Positions 31,917 to 51,805 of a stretch of 64,000 nt of DNA are shown one piece after another. Position 1 is the first letter of the stretch. Every line of letters starts with the position of its first letter. The translations under genes and the position numbers were made by a program. Location of the stretch: positions 32,001 to 96,000 of the IMG/VR virus record IMGVR_UViG_3300031836_000002. The stretch is one strand, 5' to 3'. This stretch comes from a virus (taxonomy: Duplodnaviria > Caudoviricetes). A model generated the notes under the pieces. The model was not told where the DNA came from. It ran no database searches and saw only the letters and a program-made list of their open reading frames with translations.

Positions 31917-32882
31917 TCACGCTGCGTGCCCGTGCTCTAGCTCGGTAGTGCCTTGGCCACACGTAGGGCAGTTGCCTGCCTCGATGAGTAGCTCGGTGTA
32001 CTGATCTTGTAGCTCTGCCTGCTCTGCGGAGAGTTCAGTGACCTGCACTGATGCGTCCTTTGCTGCATTGCTCTGGGTACGGATGCGAGCGATCACTGCT
32101 TTGTACGCTGCCAGTGCGTCGGCTGCTGCGGTGATCGGGGCTGCATCCGGTACGGGTATTTTCAAATTCTTCTCTAGGTTGGCCACCACAGTGTCCGCCA
32201 TGTCTACCGTCTCGATGTACCGGCTGAGCTGGTCGATGTCCTTCTTGGCACTGCGGGCTTCGATGAGAGACTCTTCTGCCCGTCCCACTGCTGCGAGCTG
32301 GGCCTTCAGTGGTGCGTAGCTCTTAGCTTTCTCCCTGATGGTTGCGAGGTCCTCCGCCCGTGTCTTGAGCTGGCCTGAGTAGTTCAGCTTGCGTCGGTTG
32401 GATTCCCGTGCACCTTCGAATAGAACGTTGACGTTGGTGAGTGCTCCCAATACGCGGGCCACCTCTCCACCTGAATCGTTCAGTAGGTATGGTGCATCGA
32501 ACTGGCCTGCGTAGTTGATCGGATCCTTTGGCTCGATACCAATGAACGCCGATACCTCCTCTGGCACGGATCCACCGAGTTTCGTGAAAGTCCTTTGGTC
32601 CACGTTGGGATCGTCTGGGATGATCACGTACTCGTTGTCTTCAGTGCCCTTGCCACGCTTGAGAGTTACGCTGCCTCGGTCTACCTGCGCCTGTACGGTC
32701 ATGAGCTTCTCACCATGGGTGATGAACGCTGATCCTCTGGTGTTGCCTGTGAGGGTCTTCAGCGCTCGTGTGAGTGCACTCTTGCCGCTGCTGCTCGGTC
32801 CCACGATCACGGTGAGTCCCAATAGCTCTAGGTCTACCTTCTTCAGTGATTGGTAGTTCCTGATACTGACGTGACTAAGCAA
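31917..32882 (-). CDS. SbcC/Rad50-like ATPase (N-terminal half with Zn hook)
   Basis: IRNYQS, GPSSSGKS Walker A, coiled coil, CPTC. Confidence 0.8.
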   Translation of the reverse strand: MLSHVSIRNYQSLKKVDLELLGLTVIVGPSSSGKSALTRALKTLTGNTRGSAFITHGEKLMTVQAQVDRGSVTLKRGKGTEDNEYVIIPDDPNVDQRTFTKLGGSVPEEVSAFIGIEPKDPINYAGQFDAPYLLNDSGGEVARVLGALTNVNVLFEGARESNRRKLNYSGQLKTRAEDLATIREKAKSYAPLKAQLAAVGRAEESLIEARSAKKDIDQLSRYIETVDMADTVVANLEKNLKIPVPDAAPITAAADALAAYKAVIARIRTQSNAAKDASVQVTELSAEQAELQDQYTELLIEAGNCPTCGQGTTELEHGHAA

Positions 32883-39177: not shown

Positions 39178-39534
39178 CTAGTTGTTGGCGTACAGGTAGC
39201 CGAACCGGCGTGTGCGGTAAGCATCAACGGCCTCAGCGAACCCTGCGGGATCCGAGATGTTGAACCGAACGGCCAAACCACTGGGGTGGGTTTTGCTCTT
39301 CTGGGGAGCCTTCCATGAGGCTGCCTTGACCAGATCACCCGTGGCACGGACTACGAAGGCGTGAACCGAGAAGGAGAACTCTGACTCGCCCTGTTCCATG
39401 ATCTTGTCGTAGACGTTTCCGGCCTGAACGATGAACTTGGGGGCCTTGATGTACTTCTCGTTGGCGTATCGAGCGTCATCGACTGACTGCAAGCTAGCGG
39501 CGAATCGAGCTGAAGCTTCTGTGGGGTTTGGCAT
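39178..39534 (-). CDS. conserved phage protein
   Basis: SVHAFV...GDL.KAASWKAP motif; own promoter and terminator. Confidence 0.7.
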   Translation of the reverse strand: MPNPTEASARFAASLQSVDDARYANEKYIKAPKFIVQAGNVYDKIMEQGESEFSFSVHAFVVRATGDLVKAASWKAPQKSKTHPSGLAVRFNISDPAGFAEAVDAYRTRRFGYLYANN

Positions 39535-39601
39535 GGTGTCTCCTCTGTGACTGGTTGACCTTACACTTTGAGTCTAGCAACTTTAGATTGCAATTGCAAC
39601 C
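39535..39601 (-). promoter_or_regulatory. repeated promoter-RBS module
   Basis: same core as 37551-37611. Confidence 0.85.
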
Positions 39602-40213
39602 TCTGAGCTACTAGCTTTCTCTGTTGTTGTGGAGGAATAGCTGGATCTCATCCGTGCCTGCCACATCGAAATCGTAGGGACCATCTGGGAGTTCCACAGT
39701 GTCCGGATACGTTTCTCGATCTGAGAATGTCACAAGGATCGACTCGCCCCCGTCTCCATGCCGGGGTAGGTACTTCCGCGTGGCTTCTATCTTGGGCTTC
39801 ATGGCTCTAACTGGTAGCTGCCCACCAGTTGGTCGAAGTCCCCGGCTCGCACGAGGATCAGGTCAGCGGTCTCCACGAGGGCCTTGACGTTAGCAATGGT
39901 GTACTCGAACCCGATGACACTGGACAAGGCAGAGCTACCGGGCTTGTAGCTCTCCATCAGCCTAAGGGTGATGGGCTTGGCGCGACTCTTGGGATTGTGC
40001 TTCACCTCCCACCAGCGGCTGTGTCCGGCTTTGGGGAGACTTTTCTTCAGCTGCTCACGCAGGTGGGAGGTGATCGGCTCTTTGGTGGTCATGATCTGTT
40101 GTACGCCTATCTCCGGGCGTAGAAAAGGGCTGGCCTTCCGAGAATACGGTTTGACCAGCCCAGCGACCCAAAGCGCCCCCACCGGGCCGCGTGGTCAGTC
40201 TATACGACTACTG

Positions 40214-40287
40214 TCCCTCAGGGTGGACTCGAACCACCGCGTCACCTTGTTATGAGCAAGGGGCCTTACCAGCTTGGCTACCGAGGG
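40214..40287 (-). tRNA. tRNA-Met or Ile2 (CAT)
   Basis: cloverleaf, CCTTG-CTCATAA-CAAGG, paired 1:72. Confidence 0.85.
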
Positions 40288-40407
40288 AAGTGAGGGAGGC
40301 TCGCACCCGTCGATGCGAGCGTCACCCTCGTGCTCGTTTCACTGCCTCGATGAGCTTCGAGTGAGGGACCTTCTCCCTCAGGCAGTCGTGCCCGCAATTC
40401 TTCTTTG

Positions 40408-40481
40408 TGGATCCACAGGGACTCGAACCCTGAACCATGTGCTTGCAAAGCACGCGCTCTACCAGTTGGAGCTATAGACCC
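40408..40481 (-). tRNA. tRNA-Ala(TGC)
   Basis: cloverleaf, loop TTTGCAA, G3:U70. Confidence 0.9.
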
Positions 40482-40492
40482 TCGATCATGCG

Positions 40493-40566
40493 TAGCCTCA
40501 ACAGGATTTGAACCTGTGACTTCCTCCTTATCAGGGAGACGCTCTACCAGACTGAGCTATGAAGCT
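40493..40566 (-). tRNA. tRNA-Ile(GAT)
   Basis: cloverleaf, loop CTGATAA. Confidence 0.9.
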
Positions 40567-40594
40567 TTGTCGCGGATCCGCCGCGCCGGTATTG

Positions 40595-40666
40595 TCCCCT
40601 CGACTGGATTCGAACCAGTGGCCAAGAGATTAGAAGGCTCCTGCTCTTCCTCTGAGCTACGAAGGG
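40595..40666 (-). tRNA. tRNA-Arg(TCT)
   Basis: cloverleaf, loop CTTCTAA. Confidence 0.85.
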
Positions 40667-40669
40667 AAG

Positions 40670-40743
40670 TGGAGACGGAACCCGGAATCTAACCGGGGTA
40701 AGAAGCTTTGCAGGCCCCTGCCTAGACTCTCGGCCATTCCGCC
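40670..40743 (-). tRNA. tRNA-Cys(GCA)
   Basis: loop CTGCAAA, U73, encoded CCA, T-loop TTAGATT. Confidence 0.85.
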
Positions 40744-40753
40744 AAATTCTTGT

Positions 40754-41047
40754 TTAGGTCTCATCCTCTGGACGTTCCTCGAATGTGATAGCCACATCCT
40801 TTCCCAGCATAGAGTCGAACCAAGCGGCTGCTTCAGGGTTCCCTACGGTGAGTTTGACCTCTCCCGATGGGGTGGCGGATGACCACGCCTCGTTCTGAGG
40901 CCCTTTAGCTCCTGATACAGGAGACATGACTACTTCGATGCGGGGGGCTGGATTCGCCCAACCACTAGCGTGAGCCTGAGAGACCGATGCAGCGAAACGC
41001 TTGACTTCACGGACGTAGAAACGGGCGGTGACTTTGGATATGGACAT
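40754..41047 (-). CDS. hypothetical protein within tRNA array
   Basis: GAGGAGG RBS before MSISK. Confidence 0.75.
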   Translation of the reverse strand: MSISKVTARFYVREVKRFAASVSQAHASGWANPAPRIEVVMSPVSGAKGPQNEAWSSATPSGEVKLTVGNPEAAAWFDSMLGKDVAITFEERPEDET

Positions 41048-41149
41048 AGTTGCCTCCTCGGCAATAGTTGAATTGAACTTGAGGAGGTCTGCGAACCAGA
41101 TTTGAGCCTGCGTCCGAACCTGTGCCCAGTGTAGCTCATTTCTTCTTTG

Positions 41150-41221
41150 TAGGCCTTGAGGATTCTGCCACCTCGACCCTCCGCTTAAAAGGCGGATGCT
41201 CTGCTTCTGAGCTAAAGGCCC
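41150..41221 (-). tRNA. tRNA-Lys(TTT), atypical T-loop
   Basis: TCCGC-CTTTTAA-GCGGA; T-loop GGCAGAA. Confidence 0.8.
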
Positions 41222-41226
41222 TAGCG

Positions 41227-41298
41227 CTCCGGGGGCTGGGGTCGAACCAACGCCACCTGATTCCAAAGATCAGCGTGCTGCCATTACACCACCCCGGA
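41227..41298 (-). tRNA. tRNA-Gln(TTG)
   Basis: CTGAT-CTTTGGA-ATCAG. Confidence 0.9.
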
Positions 41299-41372
41299 TT
41301 GAAGAGTCCACTACCTGTTAGGCCGGTCTTGGATAGGGCTAGCCAGCCGTGTGCGCTGCCCGTGGACTCTAG

Positions 41373-41443
41373 CTCCCCACCAAGGATTCGAACCTCGACA
41401 AACTGGCTCAGAACCAGTTGTGCTGCCGTTACACCAGCGGGGA
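41373..41443 (-). tRNA. tRNA-Gln(CTG)
   Basis: ACTGG-TTCTGAG-CCAGT. Confidence 0.9.
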
Positions 41444-41516
41444 ATATAGCAAGACGTGAGTATTAGTACCGACCGTCTTCGCAGGGATGATTGATGTTTG
41501 TCCCCACGTCTTACCG

Positions 41517-41588
41517 TGCCCTTCGAGGGATTCGAACCCCCAACATACGGTTCCGAAGACCGGCGCTCTTCCGTTGAGCTAGAAAGGC
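41517..41588 (-). tRNA. tRNA-Arg(TCG)
   Basis: loop CTTCGGA. Confidence 0.9.
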
Positions 41589-41642
41589 AGACCCGGCGCT
41601 GATCCAACAGCACTCCTGAATCGAACAGTCCGTTCCGGGGTT

Positions 41643-41705
41643 GTTAGCGCTCTGCCATTGAGCTACCGATCAAATCGGCTGGGACTCGAACCCAGATACT
41701 CTAAC
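41643..41705 (-). ncRNA. circularly permuted tRNA-like RNA (T arm, closed acceptor stem, D arm)
   Basis: GTTAG-AGTAT-CTGGG TTCGAGT CCCAG-CCGAT TTG ATCGG-TA-GCTC AATGGCA GAGC-G-CTAAC. Confidence 0.8.
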
Positions 41706-41707
41706 CG

Positions 41708-41779
41708 TGCCCTTCGAGGGATTCGAACCCCCGGCCCTCTCATCCGTAGTGAGATGCTCTTCCGCTGAGCTAGAAAGGC
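41708..41779 (-). tRNA. tRNA-Arg(ACG)
   Basis: TCTCA-CTACGGA-TGAGA. Confidence 0.9.
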
Positions 41780-41861
41780 ATGTGATGTGCCCGCCAATTA
41801 CCTCAGGCACATCGTCGTCAATTTTTCCTCCACTCCGAGTAAAATTGAAAAACCCTCGTCG

Positions 41862-41929
41862 TAACGTTGGCTGGATTCGAACCAGCGACCACCTCATGAG
41901 GAAGCTCTGCCTACCTGAGCTACAACGTC
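41862..41929 (-). ncRNA. tRNA-like RNA lacking an anticodon loop
   Basis: intact acceptor, D and T arms; anticodon arm reduced to CCTC-AT-GAGG. Confidence 0.75.
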
Positions 41930-42028
41930 TATCCCGTGGGGCAATTACTCCCACTCGTCCAGCTTCTGAAGCCTTTGGATCCCCACGTCATGGCCATGCC
42001 GCGGTTCCTCTCCAGCTCCGTCTACTCG

Positions 42029-42100
42029 CTCCCCATCTTGGATTCGAACCAAGGACCAATCGGTTAACAGCCGAACGCTCTGCCTCTGAGCTAACAGGGA
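42029..42100 (-). tRNA. tRNA-Asn(GTT)
   Basis: loop CTGTTAA. Confidence 0.9.
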
Positions 42101-42339
42101 TTACGTGAGATGGAAGCTGTCCTGCGTACTCAGGACCTTAGTGCTTCGTCGTTTCACCTATGGGGAGTACGACATTCCCCACCGGTAGGACACCCACTTG
42201 CCCTTTGTCTTCTCCAGAGCTTCGAGACACTGAAGAGGTGATCCGGAGATTTACGCACTCCGACAGTGACCTCATTACAGAGGATCGCGTGCCAGCTTTT
42301 CATTTTTGAAAGGTCTTGAGGCTGGATCCGTTGACCTTG

Positions 42340-42411
42340 TGCTTCTCAGAGGACTCGAACCTCTGACCGGTGCCGTGTAAAGACATTGCTCTGCCGCTGA
42401 GCTAGAGAAGC
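42340..42411 (-). tRNA. tRNA-Val(TAC)
   Basis: loop TTTACAC. Confidence 0.9.
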
Positions 42412-42412
42412 A

Positions 42413-43348
42413 TTAGGCAGGAGAGAGTTTCTCCGCCGCCGCACGGTACCGATCTAGAATGTCTGTCTTCTGGATGTGGTCCCGTTGCGGGTAGAACGTG
42501 TAATGACTGACCAGCGCGTTCCCGGCGATGGCAGTAGGCCGGTTCAGTCGCGTTGGCATCTCGATGGAGTGCCACGCCTCATCGTCAGTGTGTTCGATGT
42601 AGCCGGGAGGAGTGCAGTGGTTGTGATACTCCTCGGAGAGGCTGGCGAAACAGCTCACGCTAAACTGCTGCCCTAGTGGGAGCTGCACGTCGTGATAAAG
42701 AAACAGCTTGCTGACTGTTCCGGCTTCCACATGGTCTAGGAGAAGGTTGTGCATCTTTTCCGCGAATGGTCCGTCTGCCCAGCCAATTGGGTCCATGCAG
42801 TACGGCTGCACTTCTCCCCACTCGCGGGGCACACAACCTTGCATCTGGAGGTACCACGTGGATATAGCGTTGTTCCAGATGATGGGGAAGGTCACGAAGG
42901 CTGAGCTGGAGAGCTTCGACTTCACCAAAGTAGCAAGGGCGTCCTCGTGGATGTAAACGATGTCGTCATCAAATCGGACGTAAACCGTGTTCGGCTCCAC
43001 ACAGTTCTCGAAGAAAACTCTTGTGTTGTACTGCTTCTTGTGGTTGAGATTCCGGGTGGCTGGCGCGTACTTCTGTGTGATCCAGTCATGCTCAGCTGCC
43101 AGCTTGTCGGCGTAGGAGACATCCGAGACCTGATCCGGGTCGGTGTTCATCCAAAGCTGCCACTCATCCAAGACTCCTCTTTCGTGGTCCCTTTGGAGGT
43201 AAGAGAAAAGGATGGATGCAGTCGCCACCCTGCCGTATGGTGTGCAAGCAACTACCCGGCTTTCCAGAACTGTCATGGGACCAACAGTAGCAAACTCTGG
43301 AATCTCATACCCGTGGTTTTGGAGGCCCTTTGCGCTGTCGGAGGGCAA
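42413..43348 (-). CDS. putative GT-A glycosyltransferase-like protein (start uncertain, possibly 43276)
   Basis: TPYGR N-terminus and YVRFDDDIV DxD motif. Confidence 0.6.
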   Translation of the reverse strand: MPSDSAKGLQNHGYEIPEFATVGPMTVLESRVVACTPYGRVATASILFSYLQRDHERGVLDEWQLWMNTDPDQVSDVSYADKLAAEHDWITQKYAPATRNLNHKKQYNTRVFFENCVEPNTVYVRFDDDIVYIHEDALATLVKSKLSSSAFVTFPIIWNNAISTWYLQMQGCVPREWGEVQPYCMDPIGWADGPFAEKMHNLLLDHVEAGTVSKLFLYHDVQLPLGQQFSVSCFASLSEEYHNHCTPPGYIEHTDDEAWHSIEMPTRLNRPTAIAGNALVSHYTFYPQRDHIQKTDILDRYRAAAEKLSPA

Positions 43349-43406
43349 GTCCGTCTCATTCCTGAGAGATCTCTCTTTTCCTGTTGGACTGTTCGAGATA
43401 ACATCG

Positions 43407-43481
43407 GGCCTCTGGAGGGATTCGAACCCCCGACCGTCGCTTTACAAGAGCGTTGCTCTGGCCAAACTGAGCTACAAAGGC
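43407..43481 (-). tRNA. tRNA-Thr(TGT)
   Basis: loop CTTGTAA. Confidence 0.9.
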
Positions 43482-43753
43482 ATGTGCTGAGGAGATCGTG
43501 AGATATCGTGCGCTCAGCTCGCTCTGGCCTTTCGGTATCCAGACCCATGCCACAGCGGGCGAAGGAAAGTCCACCCCCTGCAACTCCGACAAGTTGTTCG
43601 GTCAGGGGGCTTCACATCTGCGCTGCCTACGAGAGGCTGCGAGAAAAAGTGCACCGGATGCCCTTGCAAAGGCGCTCCTTCCGAGGGAGCCAGACGGACT
43701 CAAGTTGTTCGTGATGTCTGAGCCGAACGCTGGTGACTAACTGCGTCCTTCCG

Positions 43754-43824
43754 AGGAGTACGCGGGGATCGAACCCGCGATGTCTGTTTGGAAGACAGAC
43801 GTGTTACCGCTACACCAGTACTCC
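43754..43824 (-). tRNA. tRNA-Gly(TCC)
   Basis: TCTGT-CTTCCAA-ACAGA, U73. Confidence 0.9.
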
Positions 43825-43910
43825 GTGAGCGCATTTAGCGGGTGCGCCTGACCATCCCGAAGAGAGGATACAGCCTCTCAATCCCAGCTCCCTGTATGAG
43901 GCTGGATCTG

Positions 43911-43982
43911 TGGGCCTGCGTGGAGTCGAACCACGTTCTCTTGATTAAGAGTCGAGAGCATCACCACTAATGCTTCAAGCCC
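43911..43982 (-). tRNA. tRNA-Lys(CTT)
   Basis: loop CTCTTAA. Confidence 0.85.
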
Positions 43983-44317
43983 CGATATTTTGCTATGTTC
44001 TCCGGTAACTGCATCCTCTCGAATGTTCTAATTCGATGACAGGTACCACAAACTACGTCACATTTTGCAATCTCAGCCATGATCCGGTTTATGGACTTAC
44101 CCATGAGAGCTGCCACTGTAGTAGCGGGATCGCTATCACGGTTCACCCTGTGGTCAAACTCTAATCCGGCGTGATGGGCTGAGTACCTGCAATCCGCACA
44201 CCCCTGAGACACCTTGTACTCCCGAACCACCATGACGTTCTTTTGATACCGGCCTCGCATGTACGCTGCCATGTAATCTCGGTACTCTTGGGAGCTTTTA
44301 TCTCTGGGTCTACTCAT
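43967..44317 (-). CDS. HNH endonuclease
   Basis: CADC..LEFDH..EIAKCDVVCGTCHRIRT. Confidence 0.85.
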   Translation of the reverse strand: MSRPRDKSSQEYRDYMAAYMRGRYQKNVMVVREYKVSQGCADCRYSAHHAGLEFDHRVNRDSDPATTVAALMGKSINRIMAEIAKCDVVCGTCHRIRTFERMQLPENIAKYRGLKH

Positions 44318-44341
44318 GCAGTAAGAATACCTTATCTAACT

Positions 44342-44429
44342 TGGCGGAGAACTGAGGGCATGATCCCCTCACCTTGCGGTGCCAACCGATTAGCAATCGG
44401 TGCCGGTGCGCCTGCCCGGTAAGCTCTCC
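44342..44429 (-). tRNA. tRNA-Ser(GCT)
   Basis: ACCGA-TTGCTAA-TCGGT, long variable arm, G73-CCA. Confidence 0.85.
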
Positions 44430-44430
44430 A

Positions 44431-44523
44431 TGGCGGATGAAGTAGGTCTCGAACCCACACGGGTATTACCCCCAACTGTTTTCAAGACAGCGCCCGATAG
44501 GCCGAAGCTCGGGTTATTCATCC
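44431..44523 (-). tRNA. tRNA-Ser(TGA)
   Basis: loop CTTGAAA, long variable arm, G73-CCA. Confidence 0.85.
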
Positions 44524-44547
44524 TTGTGTTTTTCTCTGTGGAATTAG

Positions 44548-44576
44548 AAAAGCCCCAGACTGTTAGGTCTAGGGCC
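44548..44576 (-). terminator. attenuator terminator of tRNA operon 2
   Basis: GCCCTAGAC-CTAACA-GTCTGGGGC-TTTT. Confidence 0.8.
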
Positions 44577-44605
44577 GCATTAGCGAGATTCGAAAATCTG
44601 CTGAG

Positions 44606-44680
44606 TTAGGACAGCCCTGAAGTACTGCGATTGGCCACAATGGCCGATCCCATTACTTGCTTGGACTGGTTTTTTCTCAT
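44606..44680 (-). CDS. leader peptide MRKNQSKQVMGSAIVANRSTSGLS
   Basis: ATG 6 nt after -10 (leaderless); codons match downstream tRNAs. Confidence 0.8.
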   Translation of the reverse strand: MRKNQSKQVMGSAIVANRSTSGLS

Positions 44681-44686
44681 GCGTTG

Positions 44687-44716
44687 ACCCTACTACTACT
44701 TTCAATCGAGACGCAA
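44687..44716 (-). promoter_or_regulatory. sigma70-type promoter of tRNA operon 2
   Basis: TTGCGT-18-TAGGGT. Confidence 0.7.
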
Positions 44717-44741
44717 GTGCATCCCGAAATTCTTCTTTGAT

Positions 44742-44877
44742 TGGACGATGCAGACGATTCGAACGCCACTTCCAACACTCTAGGCTGGCGAGCTGCCGCT
44801 GATGCTCTCCGGGATACGAACGCGCGCTCGACATCCTCCGGTGCTGTCTTTGGTCTACCTGATTACTCCATACATCG
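44742..44877 (-). ncRNA. tRNA-like RNA with large insertion in place of anticodon loop
   Basis: CGATGTA/TGCATCG acceptor, T-CCA end, GGCG-TTCGAAT-CGTC T arm. Confidence 0.65.
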
Positions 44878-44879
44878 AG

Positions 44880-44964
44880 TGCTCATCCCCGGACTTGAAC
44901 CGGGACGAGGGTTACCCCTCACAGCCACCTCAAGGCTGCGTGTCTGCCATTTCACCAGACGAGC
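44880..44964 (-). tRNA. tRNA-Leu(GAG)
   Basis: CAGCC-TTGAGGT-GGCTG, long variable arm. Confidence 0.9.
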
Positions 44965-45034
44965 TTATGCTGGGGTAGGTGGTCCATTCCTACCCCTGAG
45001 GTGGCATGCCCTTGGAGGAGCACTGCCACCTTTG

Positions 45035-45108
45035 TGTCTCTCCTCGGATTCGAACCGAGAACCTTTGGATCCTAAATCCAACGCCTCTACCAGTTGGGCT
45101 AGAAAGAC
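45035..45108 (-). tRNA. tRNA-Leu(TAG), short variable loop
   Basis: TTGGA-TTTAGGA-TCCAA. Confidence 0.85.
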
Positions 45109-45112
45109 ATGT

Positions 45113-45256
45113 GGATTGATCGAGCTTCAGAAGGCCGGGAGGATTCGAACCTACACACCAGCGCGTTTCCCCTCGGGCTACCAAGGGTACTAAACGCCGC
45201 CTCTGCCACTTCAGCTTTTTAATAGTGCGAACCAACCTACGTCCGCTCGATCAATC
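45113..45256 (-). ncRNA. tRNA-like structured RNA in a 13-bp closing stem
   Basis: GGATTGATCGAGC/GCTCGATCAATCC, AGG-TTCGAAT-CCT. Confidence 0.6.
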
Positions 45257-45280
45257 CCGATGAGTAGCTATCTCATCTTG

Positions 45281-45353
45281 TGCCCACCGAGAGGATCGAA
45301 CTCTCAGCCTTCCCGGCTTCAACGGGACGCTCTTCCACATGAGCTTGGAGGGC
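45281..45353 (-). tRNA. tRNA-Phe(GAA)
   Basis: TCCCG-TTGAAGC-CGGGA. Confidence 0.9.
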
Positions 45354-45428
45354 ATATAGCACACCGACATGGAACGCCTCCTCTGACTCAGCGTATATAC
45401 CGGTGTGCTAGAACGTCAAAGACGTTCG

Positions 45429-45511
45429 TGACAGGAGAGGGATTTGAACCCCCACAGTCGAAGACCACTGGGTTACAACCAGCTACCCTGCGCCAATAGG
45501 TGAGTCCTGCC
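45429..45511 (-). tRNA. tRNA-Tyr(GTA)
   Basis: loop TTGTAAC, variable arm. Confidence 0.85.
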
Positions 45512-45563
45512 TTGGTGCGGACACTTACGCGGCCCGCTTACGACCATATTTGGATGGCTTCCG

Positions 45564-45635
45564 TAGCGCGCACGGGATTCGAACCCGCACCGTAGAACCT
45601 GAAAAGCTCCAGAACTGCCGTTATTCTAACGCGCC
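45564..45635 (-). tRNA. tRNA-Glu(TTC)
   Basis: loop TTTTCAG. Confidence 0.85.
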
Positions 45636-45703
45636 ATAGGTAGAGACCGCCAATAACGCGGCTGGAAGGCCTGACACCCTTCTCACTCACCCTCTACCTG
45701 CCG

Positions 45704-45777
45704 TGACCTGCACGGGACTTGAACCCGTAACCTCCAGCTTGAGAAGCTGATGCAACTGCCAATTGTGCTAGCAGGCC
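45704..45777 (-). tRNA. tRNA-Glu(CTC)
   Basis: loop TTCTCAA. Confidence 0.9.
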
Positions 45778-45916
45778 ATATTGGAAGTTTCTGTGGTGCA
45801 TCCTCGATGGGACCCTTGTGGGGGCTACCCCCTTCGCTGGTTTAGCGGCCAGCTACTCGGCACGTCCACTCCCTCAACTATTTTCTCCCATGCACTGGGA
45901 CTGGATAGCTCCATAG

Positions 45917-45989
45917 CGGCCCTAGTCGGATTTGAACCGGCAACCTTCGCGCAGACAACGCACTGCTCTACCAATTGAGCTATAGGGTC
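45917..45989 (-). tRNA. tRNA-Asp(GTC)
   Basis: loop TTGTCTG, G73. Confidence 0.8.
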
Positions 45990-46066
45990 AAAGCCAGTTT
46001 CTTCTTGCCATGGAGTCTGGCATCCACGCCGTCCTTTTCTGATTGTGCCTCAGCGGTATCGGAAGT

Positions 46067-46143
46067 TGGGGTGAACAACGGGGATCGAACCCGCGACATC
46101 CGGCTCCACAAGCCAGCGCTCTGCCTACTGAGCTATGCCCACC
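46067..46143 (-). tRNA. tRNA-His(GTG)
   Basis: loop TTGTGGA, G-1:C73, CCA. Confidence 0.9.
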
Positions 46144-46192
46144 ATGTGACAGGACCACAAGGATCCTGTCTGTTCTCATTTCTGAAAACTTG

Positions 46193-46266
46193 TACGGATA
46201 GCAGGATTCGAACCTGCGATCTCTTGGTCCCAAACCAAGCGCCTTACCAAGCTGGGCTATACCCGT
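46193..46266 (-). tRNA. tRNA-Pro(TGG)
   Basis: CTTGG-TTTGGGA-CCAAG. Confidence 0.9.
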
Positions 46267-46305
46267 ATGTTGTTGCATTCACTGTGTAATTATCAAGGTG
46301 CAATG

Positions 46306-46336
46306 AAAAAACCTCCTTGCCCGGTGGCTAGGAGGT
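46306..46336 (-). terminator. attenuator terminator of tRNA operon 1
   Basis: ACCTCCT-A-GCC-ACCG-GGC-A-AGGAGGT-TTTTT. Confidence 0.85.
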
Positions 46337-46362
46337 CTGCTGCGTTTGAGCGCGTGCTACCT

Positions 46363-46407
46363 CTAGCCGAAGTAATCTTCCGGCAGGAGGTGTGAGAACG
46401 TGTTCAT
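46363..46407 (-). CDS. leader peptide MNTFSHLLPEDYFG
   Basis: ATG 7 nt after -10 (leaderless); stop inside antiterminator strand. Confidence 0.8.
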   Translation of the reverse strand: MNTFSHLLPEDYFG

Positions 46408-46414
46408 GTAACAG

Positions 46415-46444
46415 ACCTTAGTTGCGTGAGCTGACGGTTGTCAA
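46415..46444 (-). promoter_or_regulatory. sigma70-type promoter of tRNA operon 1
   Basis: TTGACA-18-TAAGGT. Confidence 0.8.
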
Positions 46445-46462
46445 CTCCATTTTCAGGTTTCG

Positions 46463-46536
46463 TTGCGGAGGTGGGATTTGAACCCACGACCTCTAGGATA
46501 TGAGCCTAGCGAGCTGCCTAACTGCTCTACTCCGCG
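46463..46536 (-). tRNA. tRNA-fMet(CAT)
   Basis: C1:A72 mismatch, CGCGGAG start, loop CTCATAT. Confidence 0.85.
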
Positions 46537-46564
46537 TCGTACTATAAGGATTGCATGTGCAATC
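46537..46564 (-). promoter_or_regulatory. promoter/operator for tRNA-fMet
   Basis: TTGCACATGCAA palindrome next to TATAGT. Confidence 0.6.
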
Positions 46565-46571
46565 TAATTTG

Positions 46572-47042
46572 TCAAGAGTTGATGAGTTCGAGGTAGTCGA
46601 ACTTGGTTCCTAGGCAATCGTGGATCGTGACACCTAGGCCCTGAAGCTCGACTACGTTTCCGTTGTAGACGAATGCGTATTCCGGGATGGCTCCGACACC
46701 AAGGACGAAGCGGTTTCCCTCCTCAGTGAGCTTCCAGAAGCCTGCACGGCCTCCGTCTGGTCTCACGCTGTAGTTCTCTTCTTCGATCAGTCCCCACCAG
46801 CTGGCTTGGGAGATCTCGTGAGTGTCTCCGGGAAGCGAGGGGGTGTGCTGATAGTCCTCAGACCCTCCTGCGTGATGCAGCTGGATCAAGGCCTTGGCAA
46901 TGGTGGCATGTAGCTTGCGCCGGTACACCTTGGCGTTCTGTCCACAGCAAGGGCACTTGGCTCCTTCTGACACGTTAGTGAGGAGCCACTCCTTCGCCAT
47001 CAAGAGGGTGGTATGTGCCCCCGTAACCATTCTTTTCAGCAT
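46572..47042 (-). CDS. hypothetical protein (CPCC motif)
   Basis: AAGGA RBS, full ORF. Confidence 0.7.
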   Translation of the reverse strand: MLKRMVTGAHTTLLMAKEWLLTNVSEGAKCPCCGQNAKVYRRKLHATIAKALIQLHHAGGSEDYQHTPSLPGDTHEISQASWWGLIEEENYSVRPDGGRAGFWKLTEEGNRFVLGVGAIPEYAFVYNGNVVELQGLGVTIHDCLGTKFDYLELINS

Positions 47043-47073
47043 GCTGTTCCTTTTCGTTGACCTAACAAAATCG

Positions 47074-47193
47074 TACTGAAGACGGGATTCGAACCCGCAT
47101 GCTACGTGTCGCGTTCACGTGCTTGCCTCTACACCTTGACCTCCGCCTCTAAAAGGCGTAGCCACACACTGCCAGCTTTTAAGTCACTCCAGT
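47074..47193 (-). ncRNA. tRNA-like RNA with expanded D region
   Basis: ACTGGAG/CTTCAGT acceptor, ACGTG-7nt-CACGT arm, GCGGG-TTCGAAT-CCCGT. Confidence 0.6.
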
Positions 47194-47282
47194 GGGGTGT
47201 TCTTCAGTTCCGGCCCATGTTTCAGCTTGCGCCCTTCCAGATCAACGGGGGACAGCTTCGGCAATGAGCTAATGCCTATGCG

Positions 47283-47356
47283 CGGGATGTGGTGGATTCG
47301 AACCACCGGCTTCGGTTTTGGAGACCAACGTGTTAGGCCACTAACACTAACTTCCC
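47283..47356 (-). tRNA. tRNA-Trp(CCA)
   Basis: loop CTCCAAA. Confidence 0.9.
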
Positions 47357-47535
47357 TTGGCGGCAGGACTCTCATTGAAGAGCTTCTCCTCTAGACTTCT
47401 TGCTCCATTTCCTAGGTTGGGAGCTGCCCATTTTCGAGGTTGGGGCTTCCGGGTGGATCCACATCTGGTCTAAGTTCTCGGTTCCGCGGAGGTCCGAAAT
47501 TCTTCTACTGATCGTGGCCCGGTCAACACCTGCCG

Positions 47536-47610
47536 TAGCCCTCCTCGGATTCGAACCGAGACGTTACTGGTTTTTGAGACCAGCTCCTCTACCGATTGGG
47601 ATAGAGAGCC
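47536..47610 (-). tRNA. tRNA-Leu(CAA), short variable loop
   Basis: CTGGT-CTCAAAA-ACCAG. Confidence 0.85.
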
Positions 47611-48266
47611 AAGCGGAACCTGCCACTTCTGGGGGGAGAGCTTTAGGTTCCTAGCTGCTTCTCCGAGACTGAGGAGACTGTACGAGAAGCAGTTATCTAT
47701 ATTACGATGATGAACCATCGTTTGAAAAGGGTGTGGCAGAAACTTCTTCAAGTCCCGCCTCTTTGATGAACAGATCCAAAGTGCCCATGACTCCAGAGGT
47801 GGCCTGAGCATCCTTACCTGCCTGCCTTAGGCGCTTCGCAATGATGGGTAGGGCAAACGTCACGGCCTCTTCAGCCTGAGCTGCCCACACCTCCCTGAGG
47901 AGTTCAAGGTCGATATGAAATTCTATCTTTGAGGCATTATCCTCTGAGAACCTCACAGCAATTTCTTGCGCTAATGTCATTGGTTCCTTCTCTCGATCAC
48001 GGCAGACCAGATCCAGAAACCAGAACCAGCTGCCATGAGGATAAACACGATGGGATACGCTGCGGACTCGATGAAGCAGGAAGCTAGCAAGTACAGAGCG
48101 CCTGCCCAAATCAGCAACCGGTGCTCCCGCCTCACTGTACTTCCTCCACATCCGCGAACAACGAGTGGACCTGAACAGTCAGTGCGGTTCCGTTTGCCGT
48201 GTGTCCTACTACTCGGGTTACGGTAGGCAAGCTGTTTACAAACCGATTGAAATCTCTGTTGTCCAT

Positions 48267-48322
48267 GGGGACCTCCTCTGTTGACCTATCTTCAGTCTAA
48301 GGCATGTGGATTGCAATTGCAA
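48267..48322 (-). promoter_or_regulatory. repeated promoter-RBS module
   Basis: TTGCAATTGCAA, TAGACT, TAGGTCAA, GAGGAGGT. Confidence 0.75.
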
Positions 48323-49011
48323 GCTTATGGTGACGAAGGTAAGACATACGCAATCCGCGCCCAACCATCCAGCGCGCTCTCCTTCGTTCTTACGTCGATG
48401 TCCACACCACAGGCTCAAGATTCGAGGCACATCTTCAGGATCTGCTCGTTCTCCTCGTGATTGTGGTCACAGGAGTTGTGGTGGAAGACCTTGCCGCAGA
48501 CGAAACACTTGCCGTCTGGATCCCACTTTCCTCCGGCCTTTCGGACTCGGCTGACGATCTGGTCCATGTGGGAGCGTGAAATCTTCTTTCGCATAGCCTC
48601 TACCATCGACTCAAGCCTCCAGCTCGTCAGTTCCGACCGTCTCCGATTCCACTGCATCGAAGGTTTCTACTTCCGTCTCGGTCTCGTAGATGGGGACCAT
48701 GTTATCCTCGGCCAGCTTGATGTTGGCTTCGATGATGGCCTGATTGAAGATGTCTGGGTCGATGGTGATTCCCACCTTGACCATCACTCGGCCTGTCTTG
48801 CCTACCGCTGAGGTGGGTCCACTCTTGGTCATCTTTTCAATGCTGAAGTCGTGCGCCTTCTTGGTATCGCTGCCCCGTGGCTTGCGGATGTCGGTGGGCA
48901 GTAAGTGCAACCACACGTGGTGTGTCTTGGGCGTTTGTGCCATGAAATTCCTTTCCACTGTGTTGTACGCCCCCAGTGGCCAAAGAACAACTCGCTGGGG
49001 GCGTACATCTT

Positions 49012-50647: not shown

Positions 50648-51805
50648 CTAGATGGAAACGATCTCATATGGGTTCTGAGATGCGGGCTGTGCTGAGTTGC
50701 CTTCGCGCCACACCTTGGCCTTGAGGGTGTCGAATACTGCCGATGGGATGTCTCCACCGATACGCATGAGCTTATCTGCTCGGCGTGGGTCCATGCCTTC
50801 GAGGTTGGCGGACCGGGTGATGGCCTGCATGATCGTGTACATGGTGAGAGTGTCTGCATCCATCATCTCGGCGCGGATTGTCTCGCGCTGAGATACTGGT
50901 ACCTCGTACTGGGAATAGATGTCCTTGAGAACGTCAGCGGTATTGCCTCTGACATCGAGAGCGGTCAGTGCCTGCACCTGATCGAAACGGTGCTCCAGAC
51001 CGCCTAGGACGGACTCTACGGAGTCTCGTGCCCAAGCGTAGACATCTTCCTCCTGACCGTCCACACGACGGCTCCAGACGCCAGCCTCATCCATCGTGGT
51101 AGTGCAGCCGTTAGTGCACCACCAGCGGAACAGGTAAGCCTCAACTGCTGTCTGCTTCTTCCCAATGAGGCTGTTGGTGAGGTGGATCCCTGCTGACCAG
51201 AGATCTGTAGCGTTTTCGGGAACGTCTGACATTCCGGAGTTGGCAATGATGCGATCCTGCTCCGGAACGATGAGGCGGATGTCCGTCTGCTGGAGCGTGT
51301 TCATGAACTTGTAGTCAGCAAGAATTTCAGCGTTGGCTCCGTAGCGGGCGCAGATGCCTTCCACTGCATTGTCCAAGAGCTGGAGGTTCGAGAACGGCAC
51401 GACGTTGGGTCGAGTGAAGGCGGCAATGTTTTCTCCAACCGAGAGGACCTTGTACTCGTCACCGTCTAGACCTGCACCATAGTGATAGTTCAGGTGGTTC
51501 TCGATGAGTGCGCCGGGGGTCTTCTTGACGTATGCCGCGGACATCCCCACTTGAGTGGCTGCCTGAATGGCTGCGTCCTTTGTCATCCGGTGATCGGTGC
51601 CGTCGATACGCATGACAGCTCCAACCGCCTCGGTGCCCTCCGTAGTGTCCAGAGAAGTCTCCCATCCCGGATCAAGCTTGAAGGTGATCTTGCGGTCTCC
51701 GTTGACCATATCCGTTGACAGAGGCTCAGTGGCCTGAAGTCGCTGGTGGACCTGATCGAGTGTGAGAAGGGAGTCCCTCATTTGAGCTACTACGGGTGCA
51801 CTCAT
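50648..51805 (-). CDS. DUF932-like phage protein
   Basis: LTNS...R..CTNG pattern. Confidence 0.55.
   Translation of the reverse strand: MSAPVVAQMRDSLLTLDQVHQRLQATEPLSTDMVNGDRKITFKLDPGWETSLDTTEGTEAVGAVMRIDGTDHRMTKDAAIQAATQVGMSAAYVKKTPGALIENHLNYHYGAGLDGDEYKVLSVGENIAAFTRPNVVPFSNLQLLDNAVEGICARYGANAEILADYKFMNTLQQTDIRLIVPEQDRIIANSGMSDVPENATDLWSAGIHLTNSLIGKKQTAVEAYLFRWWCTNGCTTTMDEAGVWSRRVDGQEEDVYAWARDSVESVLGGLEHRFDQVQALTALDVRGNTADVLKDIYSQYEVPVSQRETIRAEMMDADTLTMYTIMQAITRSANLEGMDPRRADKLMRIGGDIPSAVFDTLKAKVWREGNSAQPASQNPYEIVSI

Follow-up and report, generated by a model that had tools for sequence, protein, structure and literature searches.

A 140-base element ahead of nine tRNA genes of an actinophage-like virus encodes a 14-codon leader peptide spelled in the amino acids that those tRNAs carry. 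It is predicted to fold either into a transcription terminator or into a read-through structure, and the phage therefore probably makes these tRNAs only when the corresponding codons are decoded slowly. Ten other phages, two of which are cultured, carry the same device, and we found no published account of it. The most likely mechanism is ribosome-mediated transcription attenuation of the leaderless actinobacterial type applied to tRNA genes, although this is inferred from sequence and comparative evidence without transcript, 3'-end or ribosome data.

The window analyzed here is a stretch of 64,000 nucleotides (positions 32,001 to 96,000 of IMG/VR record IMGVR_UViG_3300031836_000002), which is part of a single 124-kb contig found in brine metagenomes and encodes proteins that are most like those of phages of Actinobacteria. 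All genes around the element lie on the minus strand. ARAGORN identifies 28 tRNA genes in the surrounding array and Rfam adds one more, at a place where relatives have tRNA-Lys(ttt). The element lies in the 195-nt spacer between tRNA-Met and tRNA-Pro, and the positions of its parts and of neighboring features are summarized below.

Coordinates of the leader elements and associated features, as positions in the window
Feature	Position	Strand	Remarks
tRNA array (ARAGORN)	47610-40213	-	28 tRNA genes
Repeated promoter cassette, copy before tRNA-Met	46537-46565	-	palindrome plus TATAGT
tRNA-Met	46536-46462	-	
Local hairpin	46447-46428	-	5' arm and loop contain the -35 hexamer
Element 1, whole	46444-46306	-	
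-35 hexamer	46439-46444	-	TTGACA; 18-nt spacer to the -10
-10 hexamer	46415-46420	-	TAAGGT (TANNNT type); 7 nt before the ATG
Leader 1 ORF	46363-46407	-	14 codons plus TAG, MNTFSHLLPEDYFG; ATG at 46407, TAG at 46365-46363; probably translated from a leaderless mRNA
Segment 1	46377-46391	-	His-Leu-Leu-Pro-Glu codons; pairs with segment 2
Part of segment 1 reading ACCTCCT	46385-46391	-	identical to the anti-Shine-Dalgarno end of 16S rRNA
Segment 2	46359-46372	-	contains the stop codon; pairs with segment 1 or segment 3
Segment 3	46326-46336	-	pairs with segment 2 (antiterminator) or segment 4 (terminator 5' arm)
Segment 4 and T-run	46306-46317	-	segment 4 (AGGAGGT) 46317-46311, T-run 46311-46306; predicted end of a terminated RNA of about 102 nt
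tRNA-Pro	46266-46192	-	first gene of block 1
Block 1	44879-46266	-	Pro(tgg), His(gtg), Asp(gtc), Glu(ctc), Glu(ttc), Tyr(gta), Phe(gaa), Leu(tag), Leu(gag)
Second attenuator-like element	44545-44716	-	TTGCGT-N18-TAGGGT-N6-ATG
Leader 2 ORF	44680-44606	-	24 codons
Leader 2 hairpin	44576-44551	-	TTTTCT tail
Block 2	44429-40213	-	Ser, Lys, Gly, Thr, Val, Asn, Arg, Gln, Lys-like, Cys, Ile, Ala, Met
tRNA called SeC by ARAGORN	41861-41929	-	69 nt, anticodon TCA (Rfam tRNA, 44 bits)
tRNA found by Rfam only	41150-41221	-	48.6 bits; anticodon loop reads UUU (Lys), unusual T-arm
tRNA-like remnants	47130-47050, 45200-45120, 44860-44700, 41700-41590	-	GGTTCGAATCC-type T-arms
Weak YrlA (Y RNA-like) match	41649-41696	-	34 bits against a gathering score of 69
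30-codon ORF	47464-47372		no -10 hexamer, no terminator

The first-pass annotation, which had described a complete 1:2 / 2:3 / 3:4 attenuator at this site, is confirmed for the layout, and its interpretation is supported. The stop codon lies inside segment 2, and segment 3 is shared by the antiterminator and the terminator. Folded from the ATG, the RNA forms the 1:2 hairpin plus the 3:4 terminator at -40.6 kcal/mol (z = -4.5, with 0 of 200 shuffles as stable), while the 162-nt spacer gives z = -5.2. The alternative 2:3 duplex reaches -20.0 kcal/mol against -10.5 +/- 2.9 for shuffled segment 2 (p = 0.004), and the terminator hairpin, a stem of 7+3 bp followed by T6, has an energy of -19.6 kcal/mol. 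As the annotation had also claimed, the codons CAC, CTC, GAA, TAC and TTC are exact complements of downstream anticodons. CTG, CCG and GAT are readable by wobble, whereas TCA and GGC have no cognate phage tRNA. Two corrections are needed, since by geometry the Asp, Tyr, second Phe and Gly codons of this copy lie too close to segment 2 to act as sensors, and dependence on translation is inferred, not shown.

The promoter-to-ATG pattern TTG[AC][AC]A-N17-19-TANNNT-N6-7-ATG occurs once in the 124-kb genome, where 0.1 is expected. A sigma-70 and terminator consensus scan flagged neither the promoter nor the terminator of this element, as TAAGGT matches TATAAT at only 3 of 6 positions and the terminator loop is longer than 8 nt, but TAnnnT is the published actinobacterial -10 consensus (PMC8079986). 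A promoter cassette is repeated at about 20 sites on the minus strand of the genome and consists of the palindrome TTGCAnnTGCAA, a -10 (TAGACT, TATGCT or TATAGT), the conserved GTAAGGTCAAC, GGAGACACC, and then ATG; TAAGGT is shared with the leader's -10. A copy of the palindrome plus TATAGT lies directly before tRNA-Met, so that this tRNA may start close to its own TSS. Nine of the 13 residues after Met1 of the leader belong to the amino acids of block 1 (Pro, His, Asp, Glu, Tyr, Phe, and Leu), and all seven are present. Of 549 ATG ORFs of 11-18 codons on both strands of the genome, this is the only one covering all seven, and only 6 reach its fraction.

Close relatives are absent from, or withheld in, the collections. 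Megablast and blastn of the region against GenBank phages gave only tRNA-Met hits or chance matches, an exact 16-mer from segment 1 gave 77 loci in IMG/VR that were all chance matches of 17-18 nt, and the adjacent 156-aa protein used as a probe in IMG/VR and JGI metagenomes gave only short or unrelated contigs, one of which had a lone tRNA-Pro and no leader. Contigs of four DNA sequencing runs aligned to 44400-46700 showed no informative variation in the leader, although one contig has a 1-nt shorter T-run at 46306. Distant relatives were, however, found through neighboring proteins of 40-68% identity. A Logan contig (L083; the other L numbers likewise denote loci of relatives) is syntenic over more than 10 kb with 40-55% protein identity, and the 385-aa protein at 50648-51805 led to IMG/VR, ENA, JGI and NCBI contigs of 75-137 kb and to the cultured Microbacterium phage Magritte. 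Nine of these relatives carry the array Leu(caa), Trp, (Met), spacer, Pro, (His), Asp, Glu, Glu, (Tyr), Phe, Leu, Leu. Relatives encode a Ro/TROVE protein just past the array, and in two of them a GOLLD RNA (Rfam RF02032, 233 and 250 bits) sits inside block 1 (L083 14266-14699; L095 18497-18942), enclosing tRNA-Arg(cct) in L083 and tRNA-Ser(aga) in L095, whereas there is no GOLLD match in the window.

The comparative evidence is decisive for the element being functional. In each of the nine syntenic relatives the element lies just upstream of the first tRNA-Pro of the block, after tRNA-Met in seven of them and after a CDS in Magritte and L095. The spacer holds a TANNNT hexamer, with TTGACA or TTGCAA 17-19 nt upstream in eight of nine, an ATG 6-7 nt downstream of the hexamer, an ORF of 12-16 codons containing all seven block amino acids, and a hairpin followed by a U-rich tail. 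Pumpernickel, a 186-kb Microbacterium phage of another group with a similarly ordered array, has the same device. Nine of the ten other phages show a -35-like hexamer, and a TANNNT hexamer lies 6-7 nt before the ATG in all 17 leaders examined from 11 phages. In Magritte the -10 is TAACGT, which cannot act as a Shine-Dalgarno sequence and thus favors the promoter and leaderless reading. The order of residues differs between phages while the set is kept. In each relative the leader is the only short ORF in each roughly 14-25 kb locus, on either strand, that covers all seven amino acids at 60% or more block content (one other ORF, in L095, covers six), and three relatives with no tRNA array in the fetched DNA (L085, L087, and L090) have no such ORF. 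The element is present but unannotated in Magritte (OR553905.1, about 69,350-69,514) and Pumpernickel (NC_073468.1), which have culturable hosts.

The switch is conserved as a design. The RNAs of this phage and its nine syntenic relatives all fold as a 5' hairpin, which joins the coding region to the post-stop segment, plus a terminator (-14.6 to -22 kcal/mol) and a U-rich tail, although the U-tracts are poor in L086 and L095. In all ten, the region around the stop codon is more complementary to the region overlapping the 5' arm of the terminator than shuffled versions are (each p <= 0.05; combined 5e-13, which overstates independence as the sequences are related); Pumpernickel was not part of this test. 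Segment 2 ranges from 7 to 12 nt, and in the present copy segments 2, 3 and 4 have all changed together, with ACCTCCT/AGGAGGT in segments 3 and 4 against the GCCTC/GGGGC type elsewhere, while segment 2 still matches. Only in this copy are segments 1 and 3 ACCTCCT and is segment 4 a perfect Shine-Dalgarno sequence, followed 8 nt later by a TTG that opens a 19-codon ORF running into tRNA-Pro; this is not seen in relatives. RNAalifold on a plain MAFFT alignment recovered only the 2:3 core helix. Column-wise covariation on this alignment is not significant, as 82% and 87.5% of cells pair but 85 and 352 of 500 shuffles reach the covariation score because the helix cores are conserved, and we therefore rely on the per-sequence tests.

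The position of the ribosome was modeled by masking a footprint from 16 nt before to 12 nt after the first A-site base and folding the RNA available before segment 4 is made. Segment 3 of this copy is paired at 0.88-0.90 for stalls at codons 2-10, after which the value falls to 0.53 at Asp, 0.39 at Tyr, 0.14 at the second Phe, then 0.23, and 0.12 at the stop codon, where segment 3 is free for the terminator. Magritte, L089, L092, L084, and L094 show the same mid-ORF window. In an equilibrium model of the full transcript, however, the terminators of L084 and L095 stay favored wherever the ribosome sits, and kinetic competition has to be assumed there, as it is for the classical attenuators.

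A second leader heads block 2 and is followed by the only other strong hairpin with a U-run in the intergenic spacers of the array that the consensus scan found. Of its 23 residues, 22 are block-2 amino acids and one belongs to block 1, whereas leader 1 has 9 block-1 and 4 block-2 residues (Fisher p = 6.6e-5). Eleven of the twelve block-2 amino acids are present, which only 2 of 434 ORFs of that size achieve. Homologues are present in L084, L088, L092, L093, L094, and L096; five relatives and Pumpernickel have a homologous leader 2 with the same bias, and its last codons are complementary to the 5' arm of its terminator (combined p = 1.3e-6). Two leaders with nearly disjoint amino-acid sets, each matching its own block, are hard to explain except by codon sensing. 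A search for a third, Trp- or Met-rich leader before tRNA-Leu(caa) or tRNA-Trp found only the 30-codon ORF listed above.

Leader content also tracks array content. L083 has tRNA-Val(gac) inside block 1 and a GTC codon in leader 1, and Pumpernickel, where tRNA-Trp lies in block 2, is the only phage with Trp in leader 2. Some relatives appeared to have His or Tyr codons without matching tRNAs, but these gaps are filled by atypical genes that standard calls miss. At a relaxed threshold ARAGORN finds GTA-anticodon tRNAs in all five Glu-Phe gaps (L083, L084, L092, L095, and L096), and Infernal finds a sub-threshold tRNA (25.9 bits, below the Rfam threshold) with a GUG anticodon loop in the Pro-Asp gap of Magritte (L088 17272-17343), which is unannotated and conserved in L092 and L094. 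In the window, the 69-nt tRNA called SeC may be an opal-suppressor-like tRNA in block 2, and spacers contain tRNA-like remnants that are not called as tRNAs.

Taken together, the element is very probably a leader-peptide attenuator that gates tRNA block 1. In this model, host RNA polymerase starts at or next to the A of the ATG, so that the leader mRNA has no 5' UTR, and a ribosome translates the 14 codons while the polymerase transcribes the next 60 nt. If decoding is fast, the ribosome reaches the TAG and covers segment 2, segment 3 pairs with segment 4, and the polymerase terminates at the U-tract to give a 102-nt RNA. Without a ribosome 1:2 forms, with the same result. If a codon in positions 2-10 is decoded slowly because its charged tRNA is scarce, the ribosome sits on segment 1, segment 2 pairs with segment 3, and the polymerase reads into the tRNA genes. 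The tRNAs made are the ones that read the leader, so the loop is self-limiting. The sensitivity of such a switch is uncertain, since each amino acid is represented by only one or two codons, unlike the codon runs of hisL or pheL. In addition, four residues of this leader (Asn, Thr, Ser, and Gly) belong to block 2, and CCC in relatives is not read by anticodon UGG under standard wobble. Phage tRNA arrays are usually treated as constitutive codon-usage supplements or as spare parts against tRNA-cleaving defenses, and how their expression is controlled is essentially unknown; direct decoding-rate feedback on tRNA genes would also explain why the arrays are sorted into fixed amino-acid blocks. More tentatively, it is possible that phages deploy their tRNA genes on demand, with loss of particular host tRNAs during infection, through host shut-off, codon-usage mismatch or tRNA-cleaving anti-phage defenses, automatically switching on the replacement set and the new tRNAs switching it off again, in which case the grouping of phage tRNA genes by amino acid would be a consequence of this regulatory roster.

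Other explanations are less likely. The same switch could report overall ribosome or elongation activity, for example during host shut-off or a stringent response, rather than the supply of particular tRNAs, as each amino acid has only one or two codons and any slowdown within codons 2-10 gives the same outcome in the model. This is unlikely, because a general sensor would not need two leaders with nearly disjoint amino-acid sets that each match their own block, as seen in six phages, nor Val and Trp residues that track array content. Somewhat less likely still, the element could combine an ordinary promoter, a small conserved peptide gene with its own function, and a constitutive terminator or insulator between tRNA transcription units, without any switching. 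Relatives indeed share an E-L-D-x-P motif and an invariant CTGGAT, which may reflect an RNA constraint such as the 1:2 hairpin or a function of the peptide itself, and the strong terminators of L084 and L095 in the equilibrium model and the lack of significant covariation agree with this view. However, a constitutive terminator placed between a promoter and the tRNA genes it would serve makes little sense, the stop codon lies in or next to a segment complementary to the terminator 5' arm in 10 of 10 phages, residue order is shuffled while composition is kept, and the peptide of the present copy lacks the shared motif but keeps all seven amino acids. An RNA-only device that works without translation, such as a T-box-like riboswitch, a processing signal or a protein-binding site, is very unlikely despite the highly structured spacer and the hairpin overlapping the -35 hexamer, since an Rfam scan of 39500-48500 at E <= 1 gave only tRNA-class hits, a few weak sub-threshold matches to unrelated families (YrlA, SpF41, and plastid UTR elements) elsewhere in the scanned region and nothing in 46267-46461, and since the reading frame, the start position relative to the -10, the ORF length and the amino-acid set are all conserved while the nucleotides diverge.

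What is new here, as far as our literature searches show, is that the target is tRNA genes, that the leaders have a roster-like composition, and that the element sits in a phage. T-box riboswitches likewise read tRNA status and switch between a terminator and an antiterminator ahead of translation-related genes, but they bind one uncharged tRNA directly and need no translation. In the multivalent enterobacterial attenuators (the ilvGMEDA leader for Ile/Leu/Val and the thr leader for Thr/Ile) and the pheST leader, stalling at any of several kinds of codon in segment 1 would similarly favor 2:3 over 3:4, with the stop codon placed so that a finished ribosome blocks segment 2; these leaders typically have a Shine-Dalgarno-led start, runs of repeated regulatory codons, and enzyme or synthetase targets, whereas here the product feeds back directly on decoding of the leader. 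Closest are the leaderless leader-peptide attenuators of Actinobacteria, such as leuL, trpL, ilvL, alaL, and thrL of Streptomyces lividans and the trp, ilvB, and leuA leaders of Corynebacterium (PMC8079986), which have a TAnnnT -10 and an nTGACn-like -35, start transcription at the start codon, and encode a peptide of 12-29 codons followed by competing hairpins and a U-tract, and some of which control translation-apparatus genes (leuS, trpS, alaS, and thrS). The published ones control protein-coding genes and sense one amino acid, or up to three for ilvL, while the present element controls tRNA genes, is phage-encoded and lists seven amino acids, and its partner lists at least ten.
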